Shown: positions 10,507 to 43,121 of the stretch, piece by piece
How the letters are laid out: every line of letters starts with the position of its first letter
How positions within the stretch are numbered: position 1 is the first letter of the stretch
Source: Deltaproteobacteria bacterium
GTDB lineage: Bacteria > Desulfobacterota > BSN033 > UBA1163
Direction of reading: 5' to 3'
NCBI GenBank assembly: GCA_016874935.1
Contig: VGSS01000002.1
Coordinates: 1 to 58,450, forward strand
Length of the DNA: 58,450 nucleotides
The notes under the pieces: generated by a model
What the model was told of the DNA's origin: nothing
The model's database searches: none
The model's input: the letters and a program-made list of their open reading frames with translations, nothing else
Program-made: the position numbers and the translations under genes

Positions 10507-10512
10507 CTCCCT

Positions 10513-11370
10513 CTAAAGCCCCTCTTTCTTGAGGTGGCTTGCTAATGAAGTCATGACCATGGGAAGGATCTTTTGAGCCTTTATCCCCAACCGCTCAAGA
10601 ACCCTGAGACCCCATTGCTCGCCATTTGCTTCTGGAGGCATGTTCTGGCCAAGGTCTTGAACAATTGCATCAATCGCCTCAATATAGCGGATGCCGTCTT
10701 CCATGATGCGATAGGCCCGATCTCCTGAAATAGGGTCATGCCAGGATGAAAAAAGACACTTTATGCCTTGGATGCTTTGTAATTTTCGGATTGATTCTAT
10801 GGAGGTTCCCGGATTGACGTAGATGGGAAGCGTTCCTGCCGCAGGAATCGCATCTCCCGAAAAGAGAGCGCCCTCTTCTTCAAGAAAGAAAGAGAGGGAA
10901 CCCCGGGAATGTCCCGGCGTCTCAAAAACCTTTAAATTCTTTCCTTTCTCTAAGGAAATCGTATCTCCTTCTCTTAAAACCCGTTTCACCGGAACTGGGC
11001 CCTCCACCAGTTCAAAGAAATTCAGGATGGGCCTTTCCTGAAACTGTTTCTCCACGTTTTCAATCCATGGTAGGTCCGCTGAGTGAGCGGCAAAAAGGGC
11101 GGCAGAGTTCTTCATTATCCCCAAGGCTCCACCAATATGGTCAGGATGAGCATGGGTGAGCAAAACAAAGGAGATTTCCCTCACAGATCGACTAAACTTC
11201 TTCAAACCTTCCTGAATTAATGGTTTTGTGTCCGCCACTCCTGTATCTATTAGACAGATATGCTTACCAAAGAGGATGTAGGAATAGACAAAACGGTCCA
11301 CATAGATTCCTTTATCCAAGGCTAACCGGAAAGGATGCCTGATTGCATGAATGGTTTCAATGCCCTTCAT
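10513..11370 (-). CDS. MBL-fold metallo-hydrolase
   Basis: The LLTHAHPDHIGG motif is followed by a downstream TPGHSRGS. It overlaps the upstream UPF0261 gene by 14 nt. Confidence 0.85.
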   Translation of the reverse strand: MKGIETIHAIRHPFRLALDKGIYVDRFVYSYILFGKHICLIDTGVADTKPLIQEGLKKFSRSVREISFVLLTHAHPDHIGGALGIMKNSAALFAAHSADLPWIENVEKQFQERPILNFFELVEGPVPVKRVLREGDTISLEKGKNLKVFETPGHSRGSLSFFLEEEGALFSGDAIPAAGTLPIYVNPGTSIESIRKLQSIQGIKCLFSSWHDPISGDRAYRIMEDGIRYIEAIDAIVQDLGQNMPPEANGEQWGLRVLERLGIKAQKILPMVMTSLASHLKKEGL

Positions 11371-12631
11371 TGTTTGAACTCCTCTTTTGCAACATTCCTT
11401 CCAAGGCTTCTATGGCCTTCTCAGCAAAAAGGGATTCATTGATATGCATTGGCAGTTCCTCATAGCCTACCCTTGAGAAATCGAGGTTCTCTTTAAGGAC
11501 TGTGCAGAAAGCCCTGTCAGCCTCCGGCCAGAACCAAGGAAGGGGCGATGGGCTTCCATCAAGCCGGATTGCCTTTGGTCCTTTTGGGCTATCATAGGCA
11601 GAGAACCCTCCAAGGGGAATAATCACCCGAGAAGGACCTTTTGCCTGATTGAGTTTATCTGCAAAAACCCGTCCGAGGAGCGTGTTCTCCTCCACATTCG
11701 TTCGCATCAATGTGATGTGAGGCGTATGTTGATAGAAGATCCGATTCCTCCACTTCTCCGGAACCGTATCGGGGGTTTTGAAATTGACAAGGTCAATCGC
11801 CCCTGGAATGATGACCTGCGGAATGCCCCTTGCTCCGGCTGCCTCAAGTCGGTGGGGCCCGGCTGTCAGAACACCTCCCACCACTTCATCAGTGATTTCC
11901 GTCGTGGAGATATCGAGAACCCCATCAATCATCCCTTGTTTTACCAGCTCTTCCATGGCCATTCCCCCCGTTCCTGAGGTATGAAACACGAGGACCTCAT
12001 ATCCCTTTTTTTCCAGAAGCGACTTTGCGCGCTCGGTACAGGGTTGAACCACTCCAAAAACGGTAAGTGCGATTTGAACCTTAGGGGCTTCCTCCGGATC
12101 CTTATCTTCTTTCAACATTCCGGCAATAGCCCGGACGGCATTTAAAAAGACTTTTCTCGTCATCCGGTTGAGGGAGATATCTCCCACCGGATGAAACATC
12201 ACAATGTCTTTCCATCCAACATATCCCCGGACATCGCCCGAGGCCATGGTGGAAACCATCAACTTGGGCATCCCCACGGGAAAGCGCTGCATCACCGCAC
12301 AGGCAATGGCCGTTCCGTTCGATCCTCCAAGGGCAAAGATACCCTGAAATTTCTCCTGTTGGAAAAGATCTTCTGCAAGCTTAATGGCTCCTTCCGTCAT
12401 TACTTTCTGAGCTGGAACGCGCTCTAGTTGACTGACCAAGTTGAATTCTGCTCCAACGGCCTGAGCCACTTCCTTGCAGGAGATATCAGAAAAAAGATCG
12501 GATCGAAATGTTTTACAGCTTACATCCATCAGGAGGATGCGAATATTCTCTCCACTAAGCATTTGCCGGATATACTGATATTCGCTGTCCTTAGTATCGA
12601 GAGTCCCGATGAGGAGTACGGTTTTCATCAT
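11357..12631 (-). CDS. UPF0261 / Tm-1-like ATP-binding domain protein (copy 1)
   Basis: The N-terminus KTVLLIGTLDTKDSEY and overall ~420-aa architecture are clearly paralogous to ORF 47554..48798. Function of the family is unknown. Confidence 0.75.
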   Translation of the reverse strand: MMKTVLLIGTLDTKDSEYQYIRQMLSGENIRILLMDVSCKTFRSDLFSDISCKEVAQAVGAEFNLVSQLERVPAQKVMTEGAIKLAEDLFQQEKFQGIFALGGSNGTAIACAVMQRFPVGMPKLMVSTMASGDVRGYVGWKDIVMFHPVGDISLNRMTRKVFLNAVRAIAGMLKEDKDPEEAPKVQIALTVFGVVQPCTERAKSLLEKKGYEVLVFHTSGTGGMAMEELVKQGMIDGVLDISTTEITDEVVGGVLTAGPHRLEAAGARGIPQVIIPGAIDLVNFKTPDTVPEKWRNRIFYQHTPHITLMRTNVEENTLLGRVFADKLNQAKGPSRVIIPLGGFSAYDSPKGPKAIRLDGSPSPLPWFWPEADRAFCTVLKENLDFSRVGYEELPMHINESLFAEKAIEALEGMLQKRSSNNEGH

Positions 12632-12717: not shown

Positions 12718-14790
12718 TTATGCAGGCAGAAGTTTCATAGCGGCAAGTTTATCGGCAACGTCCTTCAGATCTAATTCCTCTAATTTCTTTCTGGTTGGGG
12801 CGCCGGTTTTCTCATCCCAGCCTCGTTGTTTATAGTAGTCCGTCTTCGCCGTCTCAAAATCCTTTCGGTCCAAGCCTCCTTCCGTCGCGCTTACGACAGT
12901 TGACACCGGGGTCGTTGGGGTTAAGCCCGTATAATACACCTCTGGAAGCCAGTCATGGCTTTCACGAAGGTTTGCGGTTTTCCAATCCCGGATGGTGACG
13001 GCCCTGTGGAGGTTCCAGCAGCGTTCGGCCGCTTTATCTAATTCTTGCTCGCTCCATTTCACCCCTGTTACAGCGGAAAAAAGTTTACTCTCAATAGACA
13101 TATCCCCCATGTATTTTCTCTCTGGATTAGGGCTTAAGACCACAGGAAAGACCCAGTCACAAGTAGGAAGGCTATCCTTGATGACACCGTGATGATCAAT
13201 CGATATGGCAAATCTTCCCTTGGAGGGATGGTAGGGCGTGATTTTACCGATAGGGTCTATCGCATTCTCCGAACCATAAAGCGCTTTCGCCACCTGCTTT
13301 ATGTCCTCAATTTTTGCTCCTGAGAACAGCACCATTCCGGGGTACTCATGGCGATTGGGGTCCCGGTTATCCATGACCCAAGTCAACCCTAAGACCTGTG
13401 AATAGGATCTCGGGTCATAATGATCCCACATTCCATGGGAGCAGAGCATCACGCGACCAGCCGCCTCTCCCCTTAATACGTCATCCAATACTCCCATTTT
13501 CATCGCCCCTCTCGGAAGGCCTTCTGCCATGATATCACCGAGGCCTTCCCTTCGGGCGATTTTATTGCATAGGGTGGTAATAAACCTCTCTCCCCCCTTT
13601 TTCTCATCCGAGAAAGGAATTCCTGCTTCTTTTTCCGTAATCCTGCCTGTCTCGTGCATCCATCGGAGGAGAAATACCCACATCACAAGGTCCCATGGAT
13701 TTAGCCCCAGTGTATCGATGAGCTGTTTGGCGGCGAAGGTAGCCTCATGCGTGGATGCTGGCGGGCTATACCATGTTGCTGACAAACAGACGAATTCGCC
13801 TGATTGAGGTATTCCAAAGCGGTTCATAGCAGGCACGGTCATATAACTCTTGCAGGCCACCGGACAAGAGAAACAGCCGATATTCTTCACATGATAGGCA
13901 GCCATCTTCCCTGCAAATCTTCTGTCAGCCTCATGAGGTCTTAAGGACATTCGGTTCATATCTTTTGGGTCCACCCTGCCGATCGAGATCTTTTTGGGTC
14001 CTCCAACCCACTGGAGGTTATCCCTGGCACGATAGCCCGATGCGGCGCTTCCCACGGGTGGGGGAATGATTCCATGAAGTGGGGCAGCAATCAAACTTTT
14101 TGTATACTCCACCAAGTCCAAAAGCTCCTTGGGAGAGCAGGCCATTTTCACTCTCCCCGTCCCTCGAACAACGATTCCCTTCAGATTTTTTGACCCCATA
14201 ACCGCCCCAAAACCACCCTGTCCAAGGGCGCTCTTGAGATCATGGATAATTACGGCAGTCCGGACAAGTTTCTCTCCGGCGACACCGATTACCATGGCTT
14301 TTGCCCTCGAATCCCTCATCTCTTTAATCATCTGGCGCTGCGCGTCATAAGTATCCAGCCCCCAGAGATGAATCGCATCCCGGATCGCAACCTTATCATC
14401 GTGGATGGCAACGTATACAGGTTTAGGGGCCTTTCCTTCAACAATAATCCCGTCATAACCGGCAAATCGAATCTCAGCTCCGATGTGTCCCCCCATGTTT
14501 CCCCTTGTTGTGTGTTCCACAGGCCATGTATGAGGAGACTTCGTCACTGCTGTCAACCGTCCGGAAGACGGGGATAGAGTTCCCGTAAGAGGACCAGCCA
14601 TTAATATTAGCTTATTCTCCGGATCGAGAGGCTTGACATCTCCAGACACTTCATCCCACATAATCTTCAAACCAATGCCCAGTCCACCGATGTATTTAGG
14701 AATATATCTTTCTGTGTCGACCTTTTCAATCTTGTTATTTGTTAGATTAATGCGTAGAATTTTTCCTGCCCAACCATTGAGTTCCCTCAT
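12718..14790 (-). CDS. Aldehyde:ferredoxin oxidoreductase (AOR) family pterin enzyme, long YdhV-like form (690 aa)
   Basis: The AOR N-terminal domain pattern is GWAGKILRINLTNNKIEKV...YIGGLGIG. It is ~85 aa longer than canonical ~605-aa AORs and is preceded by a Tat-signal ferredoxin gene. Confidence 0.8.
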   Translation of the reverse strand: MRELNGWAGKILRINLTNNKIEKVDTERYIPKYIGGLGIGLKIMWDEVSGDVKPLDPENKLILMAGPLTGTLSPSSGRLTAVTKSPHTWPVEHTTRGNMGGHIGAEIRFAGYDGIIVEGKAPKPVYVAIHDDKVAIRDAIHLWGLDTYDAQRQMIKEMRDSRAKAMVIGVAGEKLVRTAVIIHDLKSALGQGGFGAVMGSKNLKGIVVRGTGRVKMACSPKELLDLVEYTKSLIAAPLHGIIPPPVGSAASGYRARDNLQWVGGPKKISIGRVDPKDMNRMSLRPHEADRRFAGKMAAYHVKNIGCFSCPVACKSYMTVPAMNRFGIPQSGEFVCLSATWYSPPASTHEATFAAKQLIDTLGLNPWDLVMWVFLLRWMHETGRITEKEAGIPFSDEKKGGERFITTLCNKIARREGLGDIMAEGLPRGAMKMGVLDDVLRGEAAGRVMLCSHGMWDHYDPRSYSQVLGLTWVMDNRDPNRHEYPGMVLFSGAKIEDIKQVAKALYGSENAIDPIGKITPYHPSKGRFAISIDHHGVIKDSLPTCDWVFPVVLSPNPERKYMGDMSIESKLFSAVTGVKWSEQELDKAAERCWNLHRAVTIRDWKTANLRESHDWLPEVYYTGLTPTTPVSTVVSATEGGLDRKDFETAKTDYYKQRGWDEKTGAPTRKKLEELDLKDVADKLAAMKLLPA

Positions 14791-15723: not shown

Positions 15724-16425
15724 TCAGACACCCAAATAAAGTTTCTTCACCTCCTTATTTTCCCAGAGTTTTGTTGGTGTCGAGGAGTAGACAATTTTCC
15801 CCTTACTCATGACATGGGCATAGTCTGCAAATTTCTTAGCAAAGGAAAGGTTTTGTTCAACCAAGAAGATAGATAGCCCTCCTTCCTTGAGCTTGAGGAT
15901 GACATCCCCTACTTCCCGGACCAGCACCGGGGCTAACCCCTCTGTAGGCTCGTCCATAAGGAGCAGGAGGGGATTTGAAATCAGTGCCCTGGCAATGGCC
16001 AACATCTGTTGCTCCCCACCGCTCAATTGGTTTCCTCGATTCTGATCCCGTTCCTTCAGTCGTGGGAAGAGACTATAGATCTTTTCAAAATCCCACATCG
16101 AACTCTCGGAGCCACGGGCAGCAACGGCCAGATTTTCTCTCACCGTTAATGAGGGGAAAATCCGTCTGCCTTGAGGAACTAGACCGATCTGCATACGAAT
16201 GATTTTGTAAGCCGATATATGGGTGATGTCCTTATCATTGAACAAGATTTGTCCCTTACGAGCTGGAGTAAGTCCGACAATGGATCGGACCAAAGTGGTC
16301 TTTCCCACTCCATTTCGCCCCAGGAGAGCCACTACCGTTCCCTTAGCCACCTCGAGACTGATCCCTTGGAGGATATAGCTTTGGTCATAATAGGTATGAA
16401 TGTCCACCACCTTGAGCATAAACAT
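15724..16425 (-). CDS. livF: Branched-chain amino acid-type (HAAT family) ABC transporter ATP-binding protein
   Basis: Walker A GRNGVGKTT, signature LSGGEQQML, Walker B LLLMDEP. It follows livG with a 1-nt overlap. Confidence 0.85.
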   Translation of the reverse strand: MFMLKVVDIHTYYDQSYILQGISLEVAKGTVVALLGRNGVGKTTLVRSIVGLTPARKGQILFNDKDITHISAYKIIRMQIGLVPQGRRIFPSLTVRENLAVAARGSESSMWDFEKIYSLFPRLKERDQNRGNQLSGGEQQMLAIARALISNPLLLLMDEPTEGLAPVLVREVGDVILKLKEGGLSIFLVEQNLSFAKKFADYAHVMSKGKIVYSSTPTKLWENKEVKKLYLGV

Positions 16426-17228
16426 TACTCCGCACCCAAATAGATTTCTTGTACGGTAGAATTATTTTTGATCACTTCTTTCGTGCCCTCGATTAGACAT
16501 TCCCCATGATAAAGAACCGTTATCTTTTCGGCAAATTCAAAGGCGACATCCATATCGTGTTCAATCAGCAGGATGGTAATGTTTGGATCCAGTTTTTTGA
16601 GAAGTAGAGTTAAGGCCTGAGTTTCCGCTGAAGAGAGTCCTGCCGCCGGCTCATCCAGAAGCAGGAGGCGTGGCTCCTGGGCAAGGGCAAGGGCAACCTC
16701 AATCTGTCTCTGGACTCCATGGGAAAGGTTTTTGACGGGGGTATTACGTTTATCCCACAGGTCGAATTCTTTCAAAAGGCGATTACATCGGTCTATAAGA
16801 TTATGATGAGAAGAGATAGGCCTAAACATCACAAATTTCGTTAGGGTCAGGGCCTGGCAGGCCATTATAATATTTTCTGACACCGTCAGTTTTTGAAAAA
16901 GATTGGTGATTTGATATGTTCTTGCCATTCCCAGGGCTGCCCGACGGTAAGAAGGCAACCCGGTAACCTCTCTGCCAAAGAAGAGGATTTTTCCTTTACT
17001 GGCCGGATAGGTCCCGCTGAGCAGGTTAAAGATCGTCGTTTTTCCTGCACCATTCGGCCCCATGAGGACCCGTCTTTCACCCAACTCTATCGTCAGGCTG
17101 ACTGAATTAACCGCCCTAAGACCTCCAAAATCCTTTGTAAGATTTTCCACCACCAGACATGGGACAGGCGCCATACTCTTGGTCGTTTTTATTGAAGCCA
17201 TTGACTCTTTTTTTCCTTCCGTTAGCAC
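16425..17228 (-). CDS. livG: HAAT-family ABC transporter ATP-binding protein
   Basis: Walker A GPNGAGKTT, signature LSHGVQRQ, Walker B LLLLDEP. The true start may be an internal Met (MASIK or MAPVP). Confidence 0.85.
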   Translation of the reverse strand: MLTEGKKESMASIKTTKSMAPVPCLVVENLTKDFGGLRAVNSVSLTIELGERRVLMGPNGAGKTTIFNLLSGTYPASKGKILFFGREVTGLPSYRRAALGMARTYQITNLFQKLTVSENIIMACQALTLTKFVMFRPISSHHNLIDRCNRLLKEFDLWDKRNTPVKNLSHGVQRQIEVALALAQEPRLLLLDEPAAGLSSAETQALTLLLKKLDPNITILLIEHDMDVAFEFAEKITVLYHGECLIEGTKEVIKNNSTVQEIYLGAE

Positions 17229-17324
17229 ATGCGCAGAATCGACTTAAATCTGAACCTCTTCGAACCTTTTCAAACTTATCCTTTTTCTTACTCCAGGGGA
17301 GCCTCCCCCCCTGGAGCTTCAGGA

Positions 17325-18569
17325 TTATGGTTTGAGCGGGGGGAATTCCCGGCTATAAACAGGCTGCTTCAAGAATTCCTCTGGTTTGTATTTCCAGAAC
17401 TGAGAAACTTTGGGATATGTATGAATGATCGAATTCTGAAGCTCTCCACCGACTTTCTCCACCTTCCGGATATAAACATCTTGGATCGGATTTCCGTATT
17501 CATCCAACCTGAAATCTCCGCGAGGAACATCTCTAAGCTCCACCTTTTTGAGGGCATCCATAAACTTGTGCTTATTCTCTACATCTCCGCCAATAGCCTT
17601 GATGGCTTCTACAATCCATCTCGCTCCCGTGTAAGTGCCTTCTGAGTAGTAGGAAGCGGCCTTCTTCGCCTTTTCGCGAAAAGCCTTCACGAATCGCTTG
17701 TTTGCCGAGTTATCCAATGCCCCGCTATAATGCAGAGCGCTGATGATTCCCAGAGCCTCATCGCCCATGGAAGGAAGGGCATGTTCATCCGTGGTTGTTC
17801 CTCCGGCGACCACCTGGATTCTCCCCTTGAGACCAAACTCCTGATATTGCTTGACGAACTGAAGTGTTGAACGGCCTACGAATAGGGCATACACCACATC
17901 GGCCTCTCTCGAAATCTGGGCCAGGAAGGGGCTGAAATCGGTGACAGTCAGAGGGGTCCATATCTTCTGGATAATTTTTCCTCCTGCCTCCTCGAAGGTT
18001 TTTTGGAAACCTCCAGCGGACTCCCACCCAAAAGCATAATCGAGACCGATCACCACTCCCTTTCTCAGTTTGAGGACCTGGTAAGTGTACTCTCCAAGGG
18101 AGTGATTGGGCTGGCTGCTATTCCATCCTGTCCGAACGATCCATTTTGGTCTCTGTCGCTGAGTCAGATCATCAGGCGCCATGATGGGATAGGTTGTTGG
18201 AATCTCTTTGGAATCAATATAGGGGGCTAGTGCATAACCCGTGGAGGCTAAAAGGCCTCCTGTCATGACGTGAACCCCATCCTTTTCCACTAATTTTCTT
18301 GTCTTCGTTAGGCCTGCCGCTGGAGTTCCCTCGTCGTCCTCTACGATAAGTTCAATTTTTCGGCCGGCTGCGGTGTAACCAATCTCTTCCAAATAAAGCT
18401 GTATGCCCGATAGCATGTCCTTCCCTGTCGCGGCAAATGCACCTGATAAAGGAGCTATGAAGCCGATCTTGATCGGTCCCTTGGCCTGAGCCCATACGGT
18501 GGAAGTGTTGAAAAATATTAGGCTTACGATAGCTACCAACATCGCCAGAAAAAAAACTTTTTTCATCAT
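17325..18569 (-). CDS. ABC transporter periplasmic substrate-binding protein (Leu/Ile/Val-binding, PBP type 1 fold)
   Basis: The signal peptide is MMKKVFFLAMLVAIVSLIFFNTSTVWAQA, followed by IKIGFIAPLSGAFAATG, which is typical of LivK/LivJ-like proteins. Confidence 0.8.
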   Translation of the reverse strand: MMKKVFFLAMLVAIVSLIFFNTSTVWAQAKGPIKIGFIAPLSGAFAATGKDMLSGIQLYLEEIGYTAAGRKIELIVEDDEGTPAAGLTKTRKLVEKDGVHVMTGGLLASTGYALAPYIDSKEIPTTYPIMAPDDLTQRQRPKWIVRTGWNSSQPNHSLGEYTYQVLKLRKGVVIGLDYAFGWESAGGFQKTFEEAGGKIIQKIWTPLTVTDFSPFLAQISREADVVYALFVGRSTLQFVKQYQEFGLKGRIQVVAGGTTTDEHALPSMGDEALGIISALHYSGALDNSANKRFVKAFREKAKKAASYYSEGTYTGARWIVEAIKAIGGDVENKHKFMDALKKVELRDVPRGDFRLDEYGNPIQDVYIRKVEKVGGELQNSIIHTYPKVSQFWKYKPEEFLKQPVYSREFPPLKP

Positions 18570-18871
18570 CGTTTTCTCCTTTCTTTTTAATTGCTGTTAA
18601 TTAGAAAATAGAATCTCGTTTAACGTTGTCGAAGCTCGTATCGAGGCTCGCCCTGTACCATATTAGGTTCAGGGCTCGTCTTACGAAACTTGAAACTCGA
18701 GCATCCTGCGTCGAGCTTCGGGCTTCTATACGAGCATCGTCACCCATAACCGTTTGACTACCAATTTTCATGATTCGAGGGTGCCCTCCGGGAATGGGCC
18801 ATTAATTAAAAAATAATTTTAACTCCTTCGCTCTCCTCTCCCTCTATGGGAGCGGAGTCCATGAATGTGCC

Positions 18872-19729
18872 TCATTGCAAACGCGTGTTCGCTGGGAGCC
18901 GAATGGTTTTAAAACTCCGGATTGCCTCGGTGATTGATTTTTCCACCGGTATTCGTTCAGCGGTTGACCCTCCCACGTATCCGTCTAACCCCTTTACCCT
19001 CTCAAGAAGGTAGGTCACATCCTGAGGGGTTTCTGTAGCTCCCCCGTGACAGGTCACAACGACATCTGGCTTCTTTTTCTTGACCGTATCAATGATATTC
19101 TGGATAAGACCTATCATTGCTTCCAAAGAAGTCACCGTTTTGGAGCCAATTGACCCGCCACTGGTATTCCCTCCATGGGCGATGATGTTATCGCATCCGG
19201 CCTCGACCATCTTCAGGGCCTCTTCCGGTGAAGTGACAAAGGCTTTTGTGTAGAGGCCTTTCTGATGGGCAATCGCTATCATCTCCACTTCTTTGTCAAA
19301 CGTGATCCCTGTTTCCTCAAGGACTCTTCTAAAGTTCCCATCGATGAGGGCAAGGGTAGGGCAGTTCAATATTCCTGAAAAACCAGCGGTTAAGATTTCA
19401 TCTAAAAAAAATTCCATGTTCCGGGTGGGATCGGCTCCAAGAAGTCCTGCCATGACGGGGGTATGATTGATTACAGGGAGGATATCCCTTTTGCCTAATT
19501 CAAGGGTAACGGCGTTTGCATCGGCAATCGAAAGATAACCAGCCATGGAGGAAAGCCCTGCCATTCGAAACCTTGCCAAGATGTGGGTTGTAATCATGTC
19601 TGCGCCGCCTACCTCTGCAAATTTGGCGGAGATCCCTGTTCCAGCAAAAGCGTCAAAGAGAGCCTGCCCTTGCTGAATTTCTGCTTTGAATCTGTCTACA
19701 ATCTCCTGTCTCTTAAATCGCTTGACCAT
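18872..19729 (-). CDS. Phosphoenolpyruvate hydrolase-like TIM-barrel protein (PF09370 family, usual partner of UPF0261)
   Basis: Family-typical blocks are GTGISAKFAEVGGADMI, ARFRMAGLSSMAGYL, ANAV, GFSGILNCPTLALIDGNFRRVLEETG, EVEMIAIAH and TCHGG. The start was set at ATG 19729, with GGAGG 7 nt upstream. Confidence 0.8.
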   Translation of the reverse strand: MVKRFKRQEIVDRFKAEIQQGQALFDAFAGTGISAKFAEVGGADMITTHILARFRMAGLSSMAGYLSIADANAVTLELGKRDILPVINHTPVMAGLLGADPTRNMEFFLDEILTAGFSGILNCPTLALIDGNFRRVLEETGITFDKEVEMIAIAHQKGLYTKAFVTSPEEALKMVEAGCDNIIAHGGNTSGGSIGSKTVTSLEAMIGLIQNIIDTVKKKKPDVVVTCHGGATETPQDVTYLLERVKGLDGYVGGSTAERIPVEKSITEAIRSFKTIRLPANTRLQ

Positions 19730-19751
19730 CTTATTCCTCCCAATTCCTCCA

Positions 19752-20729
19752 TTATGTAACTCCTTCGGTCTCGGCCTTTTCCTCACCTCCTTTTAGCCAA
19801 TCATTGATAAGATTAATCAGTCCTTGGGGTGCGTAAAGAATAGTAAGAATGTAAATGGTTCCTACAATGAGGAGCCAACGATGGGTATAGGCACTGATAA
19901 AGTTTTTAAGGAATATTATGATTCCTGCGCCAAGAACCGGGCCGATCAAAGTCCCTGGGCCTCCCAGAATCACCATCAAAATAATTTCTATGGATGCAGT
20001 GAGTTCCATGTCATAAGGACTAACAAAGCCATTGTAATACGCCCAGAACACTCCTGCAGCGCCTCCAAAGAATGCCGCAATCACATAGCTAATGTACTTG
20101 TGAAGCCAGGTATGATATCCGAGAACCTTCATACGAGATTCGCTTTCCCGAATCCCTTTCAGGCTGTGACCGAAGGGTGAACGCACAAAGATAATGATCA
20201 GGGCAAGACAGATTATAAAAAAAACGAGTGTGAAATAATAAAAGGTAAGGGGGTCTTTCAGGGAGATGGGCAACCCGAGGTCAGGCCTTATGATGCCAGC
20301 GATGCCATTATCTCCACCAGTCATGCTGACCCAGCGAAATGCGAGGCCCCATAGGACCATACCAAGCGCCAGTGTAATGATCAGAAAATAGACCCCTGTT
20401 GCATGGGCCACCAAAAGGCCGAAGATGAGGCTAATCCCTGTGGCCAGAGCGACGCCGCTCACAAAACAGGTAAAAAAACCCATCTGGTAGCGAGTGGTAA
20501 GAATGGCAACCACATAGGCAGAGGCCCCGAAGAAACCGGCATGACCGAAAGATGAGAGGCCTGTAAATCCCATAAGGATATCGAGACTTCCGGCAAGGAC
20601 AGCATAAATAAGCATCTGGGTGACTAAGGTGATCCAATAAGAGCTGTAGAAGGGCGGCAGGAGCACGAGGACAACAAAGGCCATGCACAGACCAAAAATC
20701 TTGATGATTGGGACATAGCTTTTTTTCAT
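19752..20729 (-). CDS. livM: HAAT-family ABC transporter permease
   Basis: It is a multi-span hydrophobic protein. The start was set at MKKSYVPII (ATG 20729), 2 nt after the livH stop, because the 41-codon extension overlaps livH. Confidence 0.8.
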   Translation of the reverse strand: MKKSYVPIIKIFGLCMAFVVLVLLPPFYSSYWITLVTQMLIYAVLAGSLDILMGFTGLSSFGHAGFFGASAYVVAILTTRYQMGFFTCFVSGVALATGISLIFGLLVAHATGVYFLIITLALGMVLWGLAFRWVSMTGGDNGIAGIIRPDLGLPISLKDPLTFYYFTLVFFIICLALIIIFVRSPFGHSLKGIRESESRMKVLGYHTWLHKYISYVIAAFFGGAAGVFWAYYNGFVSPYDMELTASIEIILMVILGGPGTLIGPVLGAGIIIFLKNFISAYTHRWLLIVGTIYILTILYAPQGLINLINDWLKGGEEKAETEGVT

Positions 20730-20733
20730 CGTT

Positions 20734-21591
20734 CTATTCTCTTCCGAAAAGCCCGGTGGGCTTAACGGCAACCACAATGGCCATTGGAGCAAAAAGCGTG
20801 AAATAAGAGAGTTCGGGGAACAATGCCTTTCCGAAGTTGTCGACCAAGCCAACCAGAATAGCCCCGACAGCCGACCCTTTTAGGCTTCCACGCCCCCCTA
20901 CAATTACGACAACAAAACCGAGCGCGAGGAGCTCAAAATCGAGGCCGGGGTAGACGCCAAAGATAGGACCGCCCATAACCCCCCCAAAGGCAGCCAAAGC
21001 TGCTCCTAAACCAAACATACACCCCGATATGAGGGGAACATTGAGACCTACCCCGCCGGCCATTTCATGATCATCCACCGACGCCCTCAATTTCGCTCCA
21101 ACGAGAGTTTTTTCGTTGAATAACCATAGGCAAAGGGCAACGAGAGCGGCCATCCCAATGACAAATAGACGGTAGATCGGAAACACTACGTCGAAGATTT
21201 TTGTAGACCCTTTTAAAAATTCCGGGCAAGGAAGGCTATAAGGATCTCCTCCCCAGATAAGGAAGGCGAGGTCCCGAAAAACAAGGGCAAATCCAAGGGT
21301 AATCATCATTTGTGGAAGAGCCTGCAAAGGAAACTTTCTTAAAAATCCACGTTCCATGATAAGTCCAAGAAAACCGATGGAAAGGCCTGCGGCGATAGCG
21401 CCAAGAAAGAAGTTCTTAGTCCATAAGATGACCGAAAGCCCGATATAGGCGCCTAACATGAAATATGACCCATGAGCGATGTTCACAATCTTCATCACTC
21501 CATAGATCAATGATAGCCCGCTGGCCAATAAGAAAAGAAGAGCCGCAAAAGAGAGGCCATTCAGTGTTTGAACCAATATGAATTGGCTCAA
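20734..21591 (-). CDS. livH: HAAT-family ABC transporter permease
   Basis: N-terminus MSQFILVQTLNGLSFAALLFLLASGLSLIYGVMKIVNIAHGS is typical of LivH. Confidence 0.85.
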   Translation of the reverse strand: MSQFILVQTLNGLSFAALLFLLASGLSLIYGVMKIVNIAHGSYFMLGAYIGLSVILWTKNFFLGAIAAGLSIGFLGLIMERGFLRKFPLQALPQMMITLGFALVFRDLAFLIWGGDPYSLPCPEFLKGSTKIFDVVFPIYRLFVIGMAALVALCLWLFNEKTLVGAKLRASVDDHEMAGGVGLNVPLISGCMFGLGAALAAFGGVMGGPIFGVYPGLDFELLALGFVVVIVGGRGSLKGSAVGAILVGLVDNFGKALFPELSYFTLFAPMAIVVAVKPTGLFGRE

Positions 21592-21713: not shown

Positions 21714-22274
21714 TCACGATCCTTTTACAAACCTCTGAAGGGATGTTGGCATCCTGCATTCGGGCACGAGCTCAGGGGCAGAAAGGACCACCTCAACAGC
21801 CAACTCAGCTCCCTTCTGGTAGATGAATCGGCACGAATTTTCCCGATCCATCTTTTGATAAAACGGCCTGAGCATGGCACAACACTTTCCTCCCAATTCC
21901 TCATAAAACCGCTTGTGTAAATTAGCTGACAGCTGACTAATGCACCCATACTTTGGACCTACAGGTGCTGTCCTTCCATAAAATACACCCAATATTAGAA
22001 CTCCTGCAGCCAGAGCGCCGCACATACATCCTGTCGGAGTTCCTTCCATTCCTTTTTCGTCTGTTTTGACCGCTCCACCCCCCCCATGGAATCCAGAGGC
22101 TATTTGGGGAGGGTTGGGTTTGACTTTCAGCTCAAGAACCTCTGCGACCGCAGCGAAAACCGATTCGCTTCAATGGAAGCCCTTCTTACGGTTATAGTTA
22201 GCTAATCGCCCCGCTTTCTTTGCAATCGCGGATATATTATGGTTGGCGATCAATCGATTTCGTGTTGAGGCCAT
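21714..22274 (-). CDS. C_GCAxxG_C_C family putative redox protein with one in-frame TGA (22170..22172): selenocysteine candidate or pseudogene
   Basis: Listed ORF 21714..22049 (CMCGALAAG...C...C) extends in frame through a single TGA to ATG 22274. The translation reads ...NYNRKKGFH[TGA]SESVFAAVAEVL...ASGFHGGGG...CGALAAG. The TGA sits where the family has its first invariant Cys. Confidence 0.5.
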
Positions 22275-22288
22275 TGTTTTAAACCGAT

Positions 22289-23545
22289 TCACTTCAGCAT
22301 CTCTTCTTCAAAGGGAAAGAGGGTAAAAAACTCATGCCCTTTGTCCGTAATCAATAAGTCGGTTTCCAGGCGAACCGTTTGTTCAAGGTTGGGGTGACCC
22401 GCAAACGTTTCTACGGCAAAGTACATATTTGGTTTGATCTCGGCGGGGTATTTCAGGGAGTAAGCCCTTGAAATCCACATGCCCTCATATAGGGTTAACC
22501 CGATGGAATGGGCAAACTGCTGAAGGGTTACGGTCCCGTACTTGTCGTCATCATAGACTGGAAATTTTTCAGCAACGTCCTTGCTTGTGTTGCCAGGCTT
22601 CATCATTTCAATGGCTGCCATAAGGGAATCGTAACATTCCTTATAAAGGTCTTTCTCTTTGGGGGTAGGTTTTCCCTCCACCTTCCAGCAGCGCACATAG
22701 TCCACGAAATATCCAGAAGGTCCCACTGTGTTATTATCGATGATGATCAAATCTCCCTGGCGGATGATCTTGTCAGTCGGCCAGCGCCTGTAGGGGCTTG
22801 TATTTCCACCGGAAGCGACAATAATTTCGTAAACGATTTCACATCCCCTCTCGTACATGTACTCGATCATTTTTCCAGAGAGCTCCCTCTCCGTGATCCC
22901 GGGCTTCGCCCATTCATAGCGTGCCTTGTACATACAGGCATCCGCAATGGCAGCGGACTGCTTTAAGAGCTCGATCTCATCTCGGGTCTTAACCACTCGA
23001 GCAGCGGACAATGCTGGCATTGCATTGACCACATTGACTCCCTTTTTCTGGAAAGCCGCCAGGGATGCCATATCGAGGGAATCAATCCCGATCTTTTCCT
23101 TTTCGACCTTGTGCTCGCGAAGGACTTCCATGACACTATCCACCATTCGATCCACCATGTATTCCACCGCGCCTTCCGACCATCTCCAGGTGATCGCCGG
23201 GCGTATCCTTCCCTCCATCCATGGAAGGTCCATTCTGGCGCAGATGAGGTCAGAACCAGCGGTTTCAAAAAGGATGGGCTCTCCTCCCCGGGGAAGGACG
23301 GCATAACGGATGAAGATGTTATACTTCCAGTTTCCTTGGAAAGAACTGGTCAGATAGCGGACGTTCGCTCCATCATAAACCACCAGCGCCCCAAGGTCAT
23401 GGATTTCCATCTGTTCCTTGGCCCGAGCCAATCGTTCTTTCCGGAGACGCTCAAAATTAACCCTCTCCTGCCAATCCACACCGGTAAGAGAGAATACTCT
23501 CCTGGCATCATACTCATGTGGTTTGCCAATAAAAGAGATATCCAT
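22289..23545 (-). CDS. M24-family metallopeptidase-fold hydrolase (Xaa-Pro peptidase/creatinase-like), canonical ligands retained
   Basis: The pattern is GDLIIIDNNTVGPSGYFVDYVRC ... FAHSIGL ... YFAVET ... VRLET, and an N-terminal creatinase/prolidase-type domain is present. The start was set at ATG 23545 with AAGGAGGA upstream. Confidence 0.75.
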   Translation of the reverse strand: MDISFIGKPHEYDARRVFSLTGVDWQERVNFERLRKERLARAKEQMEIHDLGALVVYDGANVRYLTSSFQGNWKYNIFIRYAVLPRGGEPILFETAGSDLICARMDLPWMEGRIRPAITWRWSEGAVEYMVDRMVDSVMEVLREHKVEKEKIGIDSLDMASLAAFQKKGVNVVNAMPALSAARVVKTRDEIELLKQSAAIADACMYKARYEWAKPGITERELSGKMIEYMYERGCEIVYEIIVASGGNTSPYRRWPTDKIIRQGDLIIIDNNTVGPSGYFVDYVRCWKVEGKPTPKEKDLYKECYDSLMAAIEMMKPGNTSKDVAEKFPVYDDDKYGTVTLQQFAHSIGLTLYEGMWISRAYSLKYPAEIKPNMYFAVETFAGHPNLEQTVRLETDLLITDKGHEFFTLFPFEEEMLK

Positions 23546-23642
23546 TGTTCTTCCTCCTTTTAATTTCAATTTGGCCCTTTAGCCATTTCGTTGTTCAATC
23601 TAAACGTTGATAGAGTATGATCTCACGATACCGTGGCACTTG

Positions 23643-24359
23643 TCACTTAACTAAAGCTAAAGCCGTCAAGAGGGCCTGCTCCTCTTCGGTCATGTGTTTT
23701 CTCATCGCTTCCACCGCTTTCTGAATCTCTCTTTTCTTCAGTGCAACATAGATCCTTTTGTGGGCGAGAAGAGATCGTTTAGGCGATCTGGCGATACGGT
23801 ATATCTTGTCATGACTTTTACGGATAAGGTCTATCAAGGTATCCCAGAGGAAAATCAAAATTTCATTCTGGCCTGCTTCGGCAATGAGACGGTGAAACCG
23901 AATTCCTGAGGAGATGAATAAGTCTTGATTGTCAATATTTTTTTTCATCTCTTCGATGCAGTTCCAGAGGTTCTTCAATAAGAATTCTGTAACCTTTCTT
24001 TCCAAGAGCTCCACCATGGCCACTTCAAGAATCTTCCGCACCTGCCAGAGTTTAATAAAATTGTCCCGCTCCATCTGAAGCATGGAACTGATAGATAGAT
24101 TCACTGATTCTACATAGGGAAGAAAACTCACTTCTTTGACATAAATTCCGTCCCCCATGTTAATCTCGATAAAACCCATGACTGAAAGGATCCGGAGAGC
24201 CTCTCGAAGGGAAGGCCGGCTGATGTTGAGTTGTTCTGAGAGGTTACGTTCCGAGGGGAGCCGGTCTCCAGGTTTGTAGCGGTTTCTCAAAATCAGGGAT
24301 TGGATCTGCTTCACCGCATTCTCATAGAGTCTTACCTTTTGGATCGGCTTTAGTAACAT
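23643..24359 (-). CDS. GntR-family transcriptional regulator (FadR/FCD subfamily)
   Basis: The winged-helix N-terminus is PGDRLPSERNLSEQLNISRPSLREALRIL, and the all-helical C-terminal domain is ~150 aa. Confidence 0.85.
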   Translation of the reverse strand: MLLKPIQKVRLYENAVKQIQSLILRNRYKPGDRLPSERNLSEQLNISRPSLREALRILSVMGFIEINMGDGIYVKEVSFLPYVESVNLSISSMLQMERDNFIKLWQVRKILEVAMVELLERKVTEFLLKNLWNCIEEMKKNIDNQDLFISSGIRFHRLIAEAGQNEILIFLWDTLIDLIRKSHDKIYRIARSPKRSLLAHKRIYVALKKREIQKAVEAMRKHMTEEEQALLTALALVK

Positions 24360-24475
24360 TTCGTTTCTCTGTTTACCCCCTTCAATTTTTAAGGGATATG
24401 AAGGTGATTAAGTAGCTCTTACGACTTTCCGATCGTATATTAACAGTCTCATAATTGAATTGACATAAGTATTAG

Positions 24476-24549
24476 AAAATCTCCCCTTGCCCCTCTTTTC
24501 CAAAGAGGGGTAATCCCTCCCTTTAACAAAGGGAGGTTAGGTGGGATTT
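24476..24549. repeat. Structured GC-rich intergenic repeat, family A copy 2
   Basis: The sequence reads AAAATCTCCCC...CCCCTCTTT-tcc-AAAGAGGGG...CCTCCCTTT-aac-AAAGGGAGG TTAGGTGGGATTT. It has the same two-hairpin core as 15587..15665 and sits inside a longer palindrome, 24436..24589. Confidence 0.8.
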
Positions 24550-24795
24550 ACAAATTTATGTCGTTACTATTTTAAGACTGTTAATAATATAGGGTCTCAT
24601 CGTTTTTCTCGAACTGCCAATAATATTCTGACAGCCGTCCCCTCTCCTGGTATCAACTTATAAAGAGGTAAAGTGATTTGACCAATTTCCTACCATCTTT
24701 CTATCCCCTTGTCAAGAAAAAAATTTTTTCTGAAAAAAATGTTTTCCTGTCATTTAAGAATTAAAAGTGCACCGTTTTTCGCTACTGTCCCAACG

Positions 24796-25135
24796 TTAAG
24801 AGAATAAATTCAACTGGTTAGAAGTAGCATCCTTTATTTCTTGAGGTTTAATAGCTCCCAACGCCTCTAAAATGGGGCTTTTTTAGAAAAGAGTAACGCT
24901 CAAAATCTGTAGAATTGTGTAGAGGTTCTTTTCGAGTTTGAGTTGTTTTTTGACGATGGCCACCAGCACATAAACCGTGATGGCGATCCAGATTTGGGTT
25001 TTGACGGTATTTTCGCTTGTGCCATAAAAGGCTTTGATTCGAAGATGCTGTTTGATCCATTTGAAGAACAATTCGATCTGCCATCGGGCTTGATAAAGCT
25101 GAGCGATGGTCAAAGCGGGCAGTGCGGCTTGTAAA
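24796..25135 (-). pseudogene. IS4-family transposase remnant (C-terminal ~110 codons, in-frame TAA)
   Basis: The translation is LPALTIAQLYQARWQIELFFKWIKQHLRIKAFYGTSENTVKTQIWIAITVYVL...SVTLF*KSPILEALGAIKPQE...NLFS. It carries the YxxRWxIExxFKxxK DDE-C motif, TAA replaces the expected Glu, and the catalytic N-terminal two-thirds are missing. Confidence 0.75.
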
Positions 25136-25630
25136 GAGTCACCTCTCGCTGGAGGTATTGGTTAAAGCGCGGCAGCGAATTATGGAGATCGGCGATGCGG
25201 CATCCGGGTGACCATAGATGGCTTGCTCAATACCCGGAAAGAAACGGCTGTGGAAGAAGCAGTAAGGAAGGAGTTTATCAAAAAATTGCCCTGAAAAAAG
25301 AATTCAGACAAGACCTGCGTGACAAAACTCACCGAAGCTCTCTTTTGATAACTTTTTTGCCCTAGTTTCCGCCCGAGTCCGTGCATTTGAGACTTCGGAT
25401 TGGAACTAAGCAACGAGTGGCGGTGGATTTAGGTCTCTTTTTCCCCTTGTTTTATGCCCTTTTTTGATTATGCTGATTCTTGGACTTAACCATTTGAGTT
25501 ACCTCCTTGTTCGTTCTTGGGTTTTTGCCTATTCTTGCTCACCCAAGAATATAGAGGGGCCCAGATGGTCAGTCCACTATTTTTCACCAATATCCCATTC
25601 CGCTGACGCAATATTCAGGTAGAAGCAATA

Positions 25631-26303: not shown

Positions 26304-26963
26304 TCAATCTTTAGTAGTAGATTTAAGTGTCATAAGTATTTCTTTCGCTTTGCGTAGCCCATCAGCGGCATCTTTACAGTAGGCATCGCCGCCAATTTTT
26401 TCCACTAAACCACTGCTAACCGCAACTCCACCAATAAGAATTTTTACTTTATCTCTTACTCCTGCTTTTTTAATTGCGCTAATAATATTCTCAATATTGT
26501 GGAGTACAGTCGTAAGAATCGCTGAAACACCCAATAGTTGAATATCATTATTGGAAAGAACCTCCACAAACTTTTCTGGTGGTACATCAACACCCAGGTC
26601 GATCATTTCTATACCTCCGCCCTCCATCACAGAAATAACTATATTCTTTCCAATATCATGTAGATCATCTTTTACTGTACCAATGGCCATGCGACCCAAT
26701 CGTCTAACTTCACCCCTGACGATGTAAGGCCTTAACTTATTTAAGGCCATATGCATAACCTTAGCCGAAACCATCATCTCTGGTAAAAAAATTTGAGAGG
26801 CAGAGAAAAGATGCCCAACCTCATCCATTCCGGGAATAAGAGCTCGATCAAGGATGTCTTGAGCAGACATTCCCAGGTCCAAACTAACCTGTACTAAGGA
26901 ATCTATATGGGCAATATCTCCTTTTATTACTGCTTGGGTCAACTGTTCCATAATGTTCAACAT
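26304..26963 (-). CDS. Corrinoid (cobalamin)-binding protein of a methyltransferase system
   Basis: An N-terminal helical B12-binding_2 cap is followed by a Rossmann-type B12 domain with DLHDIGKN (DxHxxG), GVSAILTT (SxL) and ILIGG. Confidence 0.85.
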   Translation of the reverse strand: MLNIMEQLTQAVIKGDIAHIDSLVQVSLDLGMSAQDILDRALIPGMDEVGHLFSASQIFLPEMMVSAKVMHMALNKLRPYIVRGEVRRLGRMAIGTVKDDLHDIGKNIVISVMEGGGIEMIDLGVDVPPEKFVEVLSNNDIQLLGVSAILTTVLHNIENIISAIKKAGVRDKVKILIGGVAVSSGLVEKIGGDAYCKDAADGLRKAKEILMTLKSTTKD

Positions 26964-27000
26964 ATGGGTCCCTTCTTCTTTAACCTTTGCTTTTAGGAAA

Positions 27001-28047
27001 TTAGTATTTACCGTATTTCTCGGCTGCCTCGATCATGGTATCAATATTTTCAGCAGGTGTTCCTTCATCAATATACCCGCCAGCAGCCAATATGAATCCA
27101 CCTCCTGCGGCACCCTTGTCAATAATCATACGACAAGCTTCCATCACTTCCCTTGGGGTTCCATTACGCAAAACTGTAAGGGGAGCAACATTCCCCATGA
27201 GGCAGACCCGATCACCAATTCGACGCTTTGCATCGCTCAAATTCACCTCATAGCCAAGATGGAAGCATTCGATACCTGCATCGGCAAGCGCCTCGAGGAT
27301 AGAAGTAGCATTCGCATCGTTATGATACCAGCGTTCTGTTTCAGGAAATGAACCGAAAACCTTTTGGTAGATGGGCAGAATAAATTCTCGAAAGTGCTTG
27401 GGACCTACAAATGAAGAAAGATCATCCCAGACTAGTATCCTTTGGAAAGTTCCTTGCGGGACCTCAGATTTGATCTTATGGAGCCAATGAATAATCGTAT
27501 CTGTTGTTTTTTCCACAAGCCTTTTCACCAAACTGGGTTGAAGGATTAAGTCTTCCATAATTTGACTGGTCCCTCGCATAAGAGCTGCTACCCCCCAAGG
27601 AGAATGAACATTGTTAAAGCTTACTGGGACTCCCTCACCTGCTGCTTTACGCATGTATCGATATGTATGAATGGCACGCGCCATATAACCTGCAGCCTCT
27701 GGATTAGGAATTTCAAGTTGCTCAACATCTTCAAGGGTCTTGATATGAGGGATAATCCAAACAGTCCCGTCAGCAGTCCATTTCAATTTAGCGCCTAAAG
27801 CCGAGGGCTCCACCGCCATGGACAAGTCTGGAAAAACGCCAGTTAAATTGTAAAAGCGTTCACGGACTTTAAGCTGGCATTCCACCATCAAAGCCGGGTC
27901 ATGGTAATATTGATATGGGTCGATTCCATTATATTTTGTAATGAAAGGACCATTGACATGCAGAAAAACTGGGACTTGATCAGGTTCTTCGTGGCGGATT
28001 GTTTTATTAATCCTTTCCCAGTTTTTTATAGCAAATTCCTTATCCAT
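27001..28047 (-). CDS. Uroporphyrinogen-decarboxylase (URO-D) fold methyltransferase, MtaA/CmuA-like
   Basis: It is ~350 aa with URO-D-family-like sequence and lies immediately upstream of the corrinoid protein. Start is ATG 28047 (MDKEFAIKNWE). Confidence 0.65.
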   Translation of the reverse strand: MDKEFAIKNWERINKTIRHEEPDQVPVFLHVNGPFITKYNGIDPYQYYHDPALMVECQLKVRERFYNLTGVFPDLSMAVEPSALGAKLKWTADGTVWIIPHIKTLEDVEQLEIPNPEAAGYMARAIHTYRYMRKAAGEGVPVSFNNVHSPWGVAALMRGTSQIMEDLILQPSLVKRLVEKTTDTIIHWLHKIKSEVPQGTFQRILVWDDLSSFVGPKHFREFILPIYQKVFGSFPETERWYHNDANATSILEALADAGIECFHLGYEVNLSDAKRRIGDRVCLMGNVAPLTVLRNGTPREVMEACRMIIDKGAAGGGFILAAGGYIDEGTPAENIDTMIEAAEKYGKY

Positions 28048-28609
28048 AACCGTAGTCCCTTTTAGCACCTTTCCTAATATTTCTGCTATCTAAACTCTTG
28101 CCCTTTTTCTTGAGTGCATAAAAAAGGCTGTTATCCTAAAATAGACTAAAGAAAGCGCCAACTTATCTTAGCCCAGAAAAGAGAACAGCCCAGGAGAATC
28201 CAAAATGCCCTTCTCCTGGTGTGCGGTCGTCTCATGGTACGTGCCTCCTTGGTTTGAATGATTTGACCAGATGATTCGATAAAAGACCCGATATTTGAAT
28301 TTCTCCAAAACCTTTTCAGGGTTCCTAAATGGGATGGCCGCCTGCGAGGGCGGGGACCTTTACTTCTCGGTCAAAGAGAGCGGTTAAGAGCCGAACCCAT
28401 TCAGCACGTCCATGAACGAAAGGAAGGGTGAGCTGAGAAGATTTCAAGCAGAACCCTTCGTTATTGAACGACCCCCGCGTCCCTCTGTCTGAACAGATAA
28501 CATTGAAGGCCGTCTCCATAACACCGATATTCCCTATTTGAAAGCCTTGAGACCCGGCCGTCCTCAAAGCCTTACAGGCAAAGAGTGTTTTTATTCGCAC
28601 TTACCCAGT

Positions 28610-34539: not shown

Positions 34540-34950
34540 TCACTGCCATTTTTGCAACAATAGGGTCAACGCACCCGTGTGCGGTGTTAGGATGACATTT
34601 TCCATCTGGAAGAATGGATAATGAATATCGGGAGGCTCTTGCGAAAAGTCATCGAGGCCTACTCCTGCGATTTTAACCTGCCCCAGGGCTTCGATCAGTG
34701 CAAGCTCGTCGATGATCTCGCCTCGAGAGGTGTTGTTGAGAAAGGCTGTAAGTTTGATCAAGCTCAATTCTCTCCTTCCGACGAGCCTCAGGGTTTCCGT
34801 AGCCAAAGGGTCATGAAGAGAGAGAAAATCGGATGTCTTCACCATTTCGTCCCTGTCTTTCGTGAAGACAAGGCGGGGAAGGTTCAGGTCTTCAGGGTTG
34901 ACGTATGGATCATAACCCCAGATCATAAAAAAAGTTATGGCCCTCATCAC
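34540..34950 (-). pseudogene. D-isomer-specific 2-hydroxyacid dehydrogenase fragment
   Basis: It contains only the distal NAD-domain and catalytic region (SLHDPLATETLRL, LNNTSRGEIID, ILTPHTG). The substrate domain, the GxGxxG motif and the C-terminal tail are missing. Confidence 0.65.
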
Positions 34951-42858: not shown

Positions 42859-43121
42859 AGCCATTTCCTGTTGGCCTGCTTCATCCTCATGAAACAGAAC
42901 CGATCATCCTTGTTCTTAAAGGGCTGGTCTGGGCTGTGACGTGTAAGGAATCGCTCGAACTACTTGGTCCCTGTGGCATTTGGAGTATCAATGCGAATCC
43001 AACCCACCGTGTTGAGTACGTGGAGGATACGGAAGCCATTGAAGTGGTGAGCCCCATTCGATTGGATAATCCTGTCGGGCACACGATCTCACATACCTTT
43101 TTCGATCAAGCAGATTCATGA
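42837..43121 (+). CDS. Small cupin-domain protein (possibly N-terminally truncated)
   Basis: LHPHETEPIILVLKG...LGPCGIWSINANPTHRVEYV is an HxHxxxE...G...PxxxH pattern. It overlaps the end of the nitrilase remnant and is followed by AGGAGGA plus the next gene. Confidence 0.5.
   Translation: MVQGTAFEPFPVGLLHPHETEPIILVLKGLVWAVTCKESLELLGPCGIWSINANPTHRVEYVEDTEAIEVVSPIRLDNPVGHTISHTFFDQADS

Follow-up and report, generated by a model that had tools for sequence, protein, structure and literature searches.

Does a UGA inside the reading frame of a C_GCAxxG_C_C family gene end translation, or is it read as selenocysteine (Sec)? This question is raised by a 58,450-nt stretch of DNA from a Deltaproteobacteria bacterium (contig VGSS01000002.1 of assembly GCA_016874935.1), which we call the window. 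On its minus strand, one gene of this family carries a single in-frame UGA, and a hairpin with a GGUC loop stands shortly past it. Comparison with related sequences indicates that this is very probably a functional selenoprotein gene, in which the UGA is decoded as Sec and the hairpin serves as the selenocysteine insertion sequence (SECIS). The C_GCAxxG_C_C family is already catalogued as a selenoprotein family, and the window gene is a further member of it. The predicted gene and its UGA are located as follows.

21714..22292, minus strand: selenoprotein gene, identified by PF09719 and TIGR01909 matches and a conserved GTGA overlap at its start; its own stop is TGA 21716..21714
22170..22172, minus strand: in-frame UGA, predicted selenocysteine codon, in the first conserved Cys column of the C_GCAxxG_C_C family

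The minus-strand frame 22274..21714 has the translation quoted in a preliminary description of this DNA and, as stated there, contains exactly one internal stop, TGA 22172..22170. The open reading frame (ORF) listed at 21714..22049 lies in the same frame. Counted from GTG 22292, the product is a C_GCAxxG_C_C family protein of 192 aa with the predicted Sec at residue 41, in the context ...KKGFH-U-SESVFAAVAEVLELK. With U read as C, the protein matches PF09719 at 57.1 bits (cutoff 27; residues 33-161, profile positions 1-117 of 118) and TIGR01909, titled "C-GCAxxG-C-C family (seleno)protein" in NCBIfam, at 55.0 bits (cutoff 47.4; profile positions 2-118 of 120). Both matches begin 1-2 residues ahead of the UGA. 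The Cys pattern of the family, consisting of the first C, the GC..CGAL motif and the later C and C, is found in the protein with U in the first-Cys column. The invariant Cys residues, numbered from ATG 22274, are C83, C85, C111, C131, C132, C148 and C173. Thus, the placement of the UGA at the first conserved Cys, originally made from the sequence alone, is borne out by the alignment to both profiles and by the Cys that homologues carry there. A PDB sequence search with the protein gave no match. An AlphaFold2 model of the Cys-containing homologue P0034 (pLDDT 80, pTM 0.79) had no PDB analogue by Foldseek (best TM 0.21), so the fold provides no functional hint.

We determined what relatives carry at the UGA column. 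The protein search returned 304 homologues, and a metagenome scan added 80 further loci. It turned out that TGA, followed by a conserved hairpin, occupies this column in 74 loci besides the window (75 in total), which come from Thermodesulfobacteriota/Syntrophaceae-like metagenome-assembled genomes (MAGs) and from metagenomes. The TGA is kept in homologues down to about 56% protein identity. Among the carriers are six species-representative MAGs, 69-80% identical and labelled Thermodesulfobacteriota, Syntrophaceae or "delta proteobacterium". Nine more distant homologues (L007, L072 and L092-L098), which we call Cys forms, have TGC or TGT instead; the codon of the Methylomirabilis homologue is TGC. 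In seven full-length homologues (203-215 aa, about 53-57% identical), GYHCSESVFAAV is aligned with GFH[UGA]SESVFAAV of the window, and the 57%-identical full-length homologues have Cys at the column (GYHCSESVF). A family member from Coriobacteriales that is only 28% identical also has Cys there (GSNCAQTV), which shows that the column is the family's first conserved Cys.

The preliminary description had set against a selenoprotein the possibility that a TGC-to-TGA nonsense mutation turned a Cys-containing C_GCAxxG_C_C gene into a pseudogene. Decayed genes do occur in the window, namely a truncated 2-hydroxyacid dehydrogenase gene (34540..34950) and the ORF-poor stretch 24360..25630. However, a pseudogene does not explain why the TGA is common to 74 other loci across such a range of protein identity, and these loci are too divergent (68 unique 75-nt sequences) to be copies of one recent clone. 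It also does not explain the purifying selection acting in one frame on both sides of the UGA. The codon-position entropies are 0.43/0.30/1.17 upstream (codons -20..-1) and 0.46/0.42/1.38 downstream, which is the same coding pattern, and the ratio of third-position to first- and second-position entropy is 3.2 upstream and 3.1 downstream. Ahead of the UGA, the frame is free of stops in all 68 unique sequences, and there are no additional stops or frameshifts in the gene. A pseudogene is therefore extremely unlikely. We also considered that the TGA could come from a sequencing or assembly error, since metagenome assemblies can contain errors and a G8 homopolymer (22078..22085) lies 85 nt past the TGA. 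The run pointed out as an error risk does exist; it encodes the conserved FHGGGG motif in frame, so that there is no frameshift at this place. The exact 561-nt gene with the TGA was found again in independent assemblies of the runs SRR7990334 and SRR10608999, and the relatives with TGA come from many unrelated projects. The probability of an error is thus close to nil.

Another possibility is that the locus makes two products, a 40-aa peptide ending at the UGA and a truncated C_GCAxxG_C_C protein made after re-initiation. Public annotation looks like this: every close homologue (65-85% identical) appears there as a fragment, 104-152 aa long, whose start lies past the UGA position, and some public protein clusters (among P0001-P0120) also contain 54-aa pieces. 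However, no downstream start is conserved. The public calls for the subfamily begin at assorted ATG, GTG or TTG codons (NWF93855.1, for example, has 139 aa), and Met occurs at codon +23 in just 54% of sequences, the window having Ile there. The window's own call begins at M76 and loses the invariant SGFHGGGG motif. A fragment would be left without the family's first conserved Cys and its helix, although the frame is kept across the UGA in all loci. Two products are thus very unlikely. The truncation of the public calls is a systematic error in annotation, present in hundreds of entries: the correct product of the subfamily is a selenoprotein of about 192 aa, and the fragments lack the Sec residue and the first helix. 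The practical value of the locus lies in this annotation, as gene callers mis-annotate it as a truncated ORF.

If the UGA is decoded as Sec, the RNA past it should hold a SECIS. The following elements were delineated.

22139..22156, minus strand: candidate SECIS apical stem-loop, 5'-UCG CUGC [GGUC] GCAG AGG-3', recognized by stem pairing, covariation and loop invariance
22153..22150 paired with 22145..22142, minus strand: core stem CUGC/GCAG, with the GGUC loop at 22149..22146
22155..22171, minus strand: possible proximal helix GAAGC ... G.CUUC from the RNAalifold consensus, which takes in the GA of the UGA; its role is uncertain

The RNA past the UGA reads AGCGAAUCGGUUUUCGCUGCGGUCGCAGAGGUUC, and the GGUC loop begins 20 nt after the UGA, as the preliminary description had it. 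No relative has indels between the UGA and the loop. We tested the RNA structure models on a gap-free alignment of the 68 unique sequences. The GGUC loop is present in all 68 sequences, and the core stem CUGC/GCAG is 99.3% paired. The stem pair 33-42, which is the only core pair free of protein constraint, covaries (UA in 60 sequences, CG in 5, UG in 1 and CA in 2; Fisher p = 1.2e-5, uncorrected for phylogeny). Its C-G state occurs in two sequence types, GCC (L036, L044, L048) and TCC (L061, L082). In the window, the stem continues past one G.A mismatch with U-G and C-G pairs. Across the alignment, the pair U29-G/A46 is formed in 68 of 68 sequences, and the pair 31-44 is U-A in 12, G-C in 11 and a G.A mismatch in 45. 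More cells are paired in the extended stem than in every shuffle. Thus, the core, whose 4 bp are the minimum permitted length, can be extended to 6-7 bp.

Synonymous sites point to the same element. Third-position entropy is down to 0.58 in codons +1..+10, and synonymous variation collapses in codons +4 to +10. Among the 36 conserved four-fold sites of the whole gene, the only invariant columns are those of codons +7 (GCG, 63/63) and +8 (GTC, 63/63), and the GGUC loop begins and ends with their third bases. Codons +9 and +4 are also among the five four-fold columns with the lowest variation. The published criteria for a bacterial SECIS (bSECIS) are an apical loop of 3-9 nt, an upper stem of 4-16 bp, a G at loop position 1 or 2 with G or U after it, a distance of 16-37 nt from the UGA to the loop, and an energy of -7.5 kcal/mol or lower (PMC13188914). 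The window element, with its 4-nt loop, 4-bp core, GG and 20-nt distance, lies within all of these limits. With the hairpin enforced, the energy is -10.7 kcal/mol in the window and -8.3 kcal/mol or lower in all 64 unique sequences.

Several observations weigh against Sec decoding through this hairpin. The fold of 22120..22175, the region suggested earlier for a folding check, is no stabler than that of shuffled sequences (z = +1.1), and the same is true of 22100..22190 (z = +0.9). The hairpin alone is short, with a 4-bp core and an energy of -4.8 kcal/mol, and just 55% of the sequences have it in their minimum free energy fold. The peptide A-A-V-A-(D/E) imposes three of the four core pairs, and a similar hairpin, CCGC-GGUC-GUGG, is found at this site in several Cys-form genes, where the peptide A-A-V-(A/V)-(D/E) has the same effect. 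The lower stem GAAUC/GGUUC, which had been proposed as part of the structure, did not hold up: it is only 80% paired, 25 of the 68 sequences break one of its five pairs and 32 break another, and no covariation was found in it. In addition, a search limited to the window and the fetched flanks found no selA, selB, selD or tRNA-Sec. Annotation of about 55 ORFs with Pfam and NCBIfam revealed no selA, selB, selD or other selenium genes, and ARAGORN found no tRNA of any kind in the window and 38 related loci.

Because of the peptide-forced pairs and the hairpin in Cys forms, structure alone is weak evidence, and since the single-sequence fold is unexceptional, the hairpin becomes convincing only through comparative data. 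The evidence for an RNA function rests on the invariant free sites and the covariation and not on the existence of the hairpin. The nine Cys-form genes serve as a control. Their first loop base is G in six, A in two and C in one, and the residues themselves vary; compared with G in 68 of 68 sequences, this gives a Fisher exact p of about 0.001 (hand calculation). A competing hairpin, AGCGAA/UUCGCU, is indeed present right after the UGA, as had been noticed before, and is 93% paired, but it shows no covariation. It overlaps the possible proximal helix, and the pairs of both are largely dictated by the conserved peptide SESVF. A search of Rfam over the whole window gave nothing at the gathering threshold and one chance miRNA match at a permissive E-value.

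The invariance of CTGCGGTCGCAG could also have a different cause. It might be a DNA palindrome recognized by a protein such as the GntR regulator of the cluster, or it might be constrained by the opposite strand, with no RNA element involved. The sequence is an inverted repeat with a 4-nt spacer, a GntR regulator gene stands at the head of the operon, and a 43-aa antisense ORF (22066..22197) overlaps the hairpin. However, the 20-nt spacing from a conserved UGA, the loop beginning with G and the U-A to C-G covariation fit the bSECIS model. The tolerated U-G wobble variant fits RNA pairing and not DNA symmetry, and the constraint is relaxed in the Cys forms. We consider an explanation at the DNA or antisense level very improbable.

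The Sec machinery was not directly observed, and this leaves room for the UGA to be read otherwise, either by genome-wide reassignment (code 4 or 25) or by near-cognate read-through with Trp, Cys or Gly. However, TGA terminates 17 of the 45 other genes in the window, among them the M24 gene directly upstream, and it is also this gene's own stop. Moreover, a Sec/Cys pair should have its UGA in a Cys column, which is the case here, and conservation of the SECIS-like element, which has the published hallmarks, is confined to the UGA forms. A reading of the UGA as another amino acid is very unlikely indeed. Taken together, the shared TGA, the coding-type evolution on both sides, the independent assemblies and the TGA stops elsewhere lead us to exclude a pseudogene, an error and reassignment.

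A further region of low synonymous variation lies on the other side of the UGA. Codons -13 (GGC, 94%) and -10 (GCC, 89%) are unusually invariant four-fold sites (22202-22213, minus strand), and the GGC CGG CTG GCC at codons -13 to -10 can pair with itself (GGCC...GGCC). A second RNA element ahead of the UGA may account for this, but so may plain codon bias.

We also assessed where the predicted selenoprotein begins. The gene directly upstream is the following.

22289..23569, minus strand: M24 metallohydrolase (Creatinase_N + Peptidase_M24, distantly DddP-like), identified by family and PDB matches; its stop overlaps the selenoprotein start

The start had been placed at ATG 22274..22272, 15 nt after the M24 gene; the distance to the M24 stop (22289..22291) is in fact 14 nt. 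There is an in-frame GTG at 22292..22290, which overlaps the TGA stop of the M24 gene as GTGA. In 70 of 71 loci, an in-frame start of the form [AGT]TGA overlaps the M24 stop, mostly 39 codons ahead of the UGA. It is often the sole in-frame start and is mostly preceded by GAGGAGGAG. Judging from this conservation, GTG 22292 is a likelier start than ATG 22274. The observation that ATG 22274 has no Shine-Dalgarno (SD) sequence is correct, and it is explained by the likely start being the GTG that overlaps the M24 stop. The window's own SD is degenerate (GAAGAAGAG), and ATG 22274 is kept for this reason as a possible alternative start. Given the conserved GTGA overlap, the gene is best drawn as 22292..21714 and translationally coupled to the M24 gene.

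The gene neighbourhood is consistent among relatives. The other genes of the cluster are listed below.

23643..24359, minus strand: GntR/FadR-type regulator, head of the cluster (conserved position, 59-87% identity)
20734..21591 and 19752..20852, minus strand: ABC permeases (family match)
18872..19786, minus strand: PEP-hydrolase-like protein (family match)
17325..18569, minus strand: substrate-binding protein (family match)
16425..17228 and 15724..16425, minus strand: ATPases (family match)

Almost all loci of sufficient length have the M24 gene directly upstream of the selenoprotein gene, and the order GntR, M24 and selenoprotein, then a substrate-binding protein and ABC permeases, recurs in nearly all of them. 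Relatives also keep the downstream cluster genes (15724..21591, minus strand) past the selenoprotein gene, though their order varies. In about 70 divergent loci (L001-L085; best high-scoring segment pair), amino-acid identity is 89-97% for the M24 protein, compared with 59-87% for GntR and 56-84% for the selenoprotein. The nearest solved structures to the M24 protein are DddP dimethylsulfoniopropionate lyases, at only E ~1e-26. Its score for DddP is 120 bits, where the cutoff is 600, and no substrate can be assigned to it from DddP. The strict coupling to so conserved a hydrolase is a testable lead on the function of C_GCAxxG_C_C proteins.

A course of expression can be proposed from the conserved GTGA overlap and the known bacterial mechanism. 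Translation would start at GTG 22292, coupled to termination of the M24 hydrolase. SelB carrying Sec-tRNA(Sec) would bind the CUGC-GGUC-GCAG hairpin 20 nt past the UGA, and Sec would be inserted at UGA 22172..22170 in place of termination. In the protein, Sec may act as a redox-active or metal-binding residue alongside the invariant CxC, CC and C motifs. More speculatively, the protein may serve the co-translated M24 enzyme inside a GntR-regulated operon for uptake and catabolism. Thermodesulfobacteriota are counted among the bacteria richest in selenoproteins (PMC13188914).

Other parts of the window were surveyed as well. A window-wide scan of ORF gaps gave two other TGA-split candidates, 25139..25141 and 43119..43121, and neither had a plausible coding read-through. 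Recoding at the junction of a metallo-beta-lactamase-fold gene and an amidohydrolase ORF (10513..10515) was also rejected. The metallo-beta-lactamase-fold gene (10513-11370, minus strand) ends in an ordinary TAG, and a new ATG then opens a same-frame 139-aa ORF (region 10087-11370), whose match to Amidohydro_1 is confined to the last 70 profile positions and which looks like a short or truncated amidohydrolase. The 1.3 kb between the GntR and Rid-family genes (24360-25630) contain no convincing ORF on either strand, and a TGA-bridged frame within them translates to low-quality sequence; this may be decayed or non-coding DNA. The 136-aa ORF at 34540-34950 (minus strand) covers only the C-terminal part of a D-2-hydroxyacid dehydrogenase NAD-binding domain (profile 62-178). 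It lacks the N-terminal half, and stops abound in the frame upstream; it is likely a gene remnant. The adjoining 405-aa ORF at 35112-36329 (plus strand) has no family match.

On the minus strand at 26304-28068, 4 kb upstream of the selenoprotein cluster, lie genes for an MtaA/CmuA-like methyltransferase and for a methyltransferase-cognate corrinoid protein that most resembles the MtgC/MtbC type; a substrate methyltransferase of the MttB superfamily was not seen in the window. The window also contains paralogous pairs, with two each of M24 peptidases, UPF0261 proteins, aldehyde:ferredoxin oxidoreductases and creatininase-family genes. One UPF0261 gene adjoins a PEP-hydrolase-like gene. Together, the pairs suggest a catabolic island for small nitrogen-containing compounds.

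4633-5955, 11357-12631, 12718-14790, 33218-34279, 38301-40139, 47554-48798 and 50004-50861: genes of the paralogous pairs

How does this gene compare with the selenoproteins already described? Two C-GCAxxG-C-C forms are known. Form 1 is the "putative redox protein" of the Olavius algarvensis delta-1 symbiont (Zhang & Gladyshev 2007, PMC1976440), and form 2 is the GOS study example WP_012158890.1 (2008, PMC2398784). Both are listed in reviews from 2022 (PMC9312934) and 2026 (PMC13188914), and the 2026 review separates them by Sec position. The Sec column of forms 1 and 2 is not stated in the text of the cited papers, and the window clade is thus assigned to neither form. The window gene belongs to the same family by its profile matches and shares with the catalogued members the Sec in place of a conserved Cys and the hairpin past the UGA. 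With form 1 it also shares the broad host group (Deltaproteobacteria, now Thermodesulfobacteriota). In contrast to them, the proteins of the window subfamily have an additional helix of about 35 aa at the N terminus, and their genes are invariably coupled to the M24 gene. One may ask whether the M24-coupled clade is a third form that has escaped the catalogues, a dedicated redox or metal-handling partner of the M24 hydrolase. Such a form would be marked by the Sec at the first Cys, the extra N-terminal helix, the overlap with the M24 stop and the minimal 4-bp GGUC SECIS; we regard the idea as rather doubtful.

The Cys-form homologues (P0034, P0039, P0041, P0046, P0048, P0052 and P0111) are similar to the window protein over the full length, at 53-57% identity including the N-terminal extension. 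They differ from it, for example in Candidatus Methylomirabilis sp., in having TGC or TGT for TGA and in varying loop bases and residues. Their genomic context is also different, with a Tct transporter, PrpD and RraA, and no adjacent M24 gene. Their CCGC-GGUC-GUGG hairpin may be a relic SECIS or a pre-adapted one. If the clade were a third form, the Cys forms that keep the hairpin would show a SECIS arising from, or decaying into, coding sequence by two synonymous changes. The locus leaves the knowledge of selenocysteine decoding unchanged. It is a clean example of a minimal bacterial SECIS, with about 70 independent sequences, no indels and Cys-form relatives as a natural control, and it shows an RNA signal layered on a peptide-encoded hairpin.

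The best-known counterpart of the hairpin is the SECIS of E. coli fdhF, which the preliminary description had given correctly. In fdhF, the UGA is at codon 140 and is followed by CACGGCCCAUCGGUUGCAGGUCUGCACC, with the GGUC loop 18 nt past the UGA. The loop is identical in both elements, the distance is 20 nt in the window and 18 nt in fdhF, and both lie within the coding sequence 3' of the UGA. The fdhF hairpin is longer and stabler (-14.9 kcal/mol for 51 nt), and a bulged U in its upper stem contributes to SelB binding. The window element, in contrast, has a 4-bp core extended across a G.A mismatch, no bulged U and a lower stem that varies among relatives. By analogy, it probably works like the fdhF SECIS, yet it is no copy of it.

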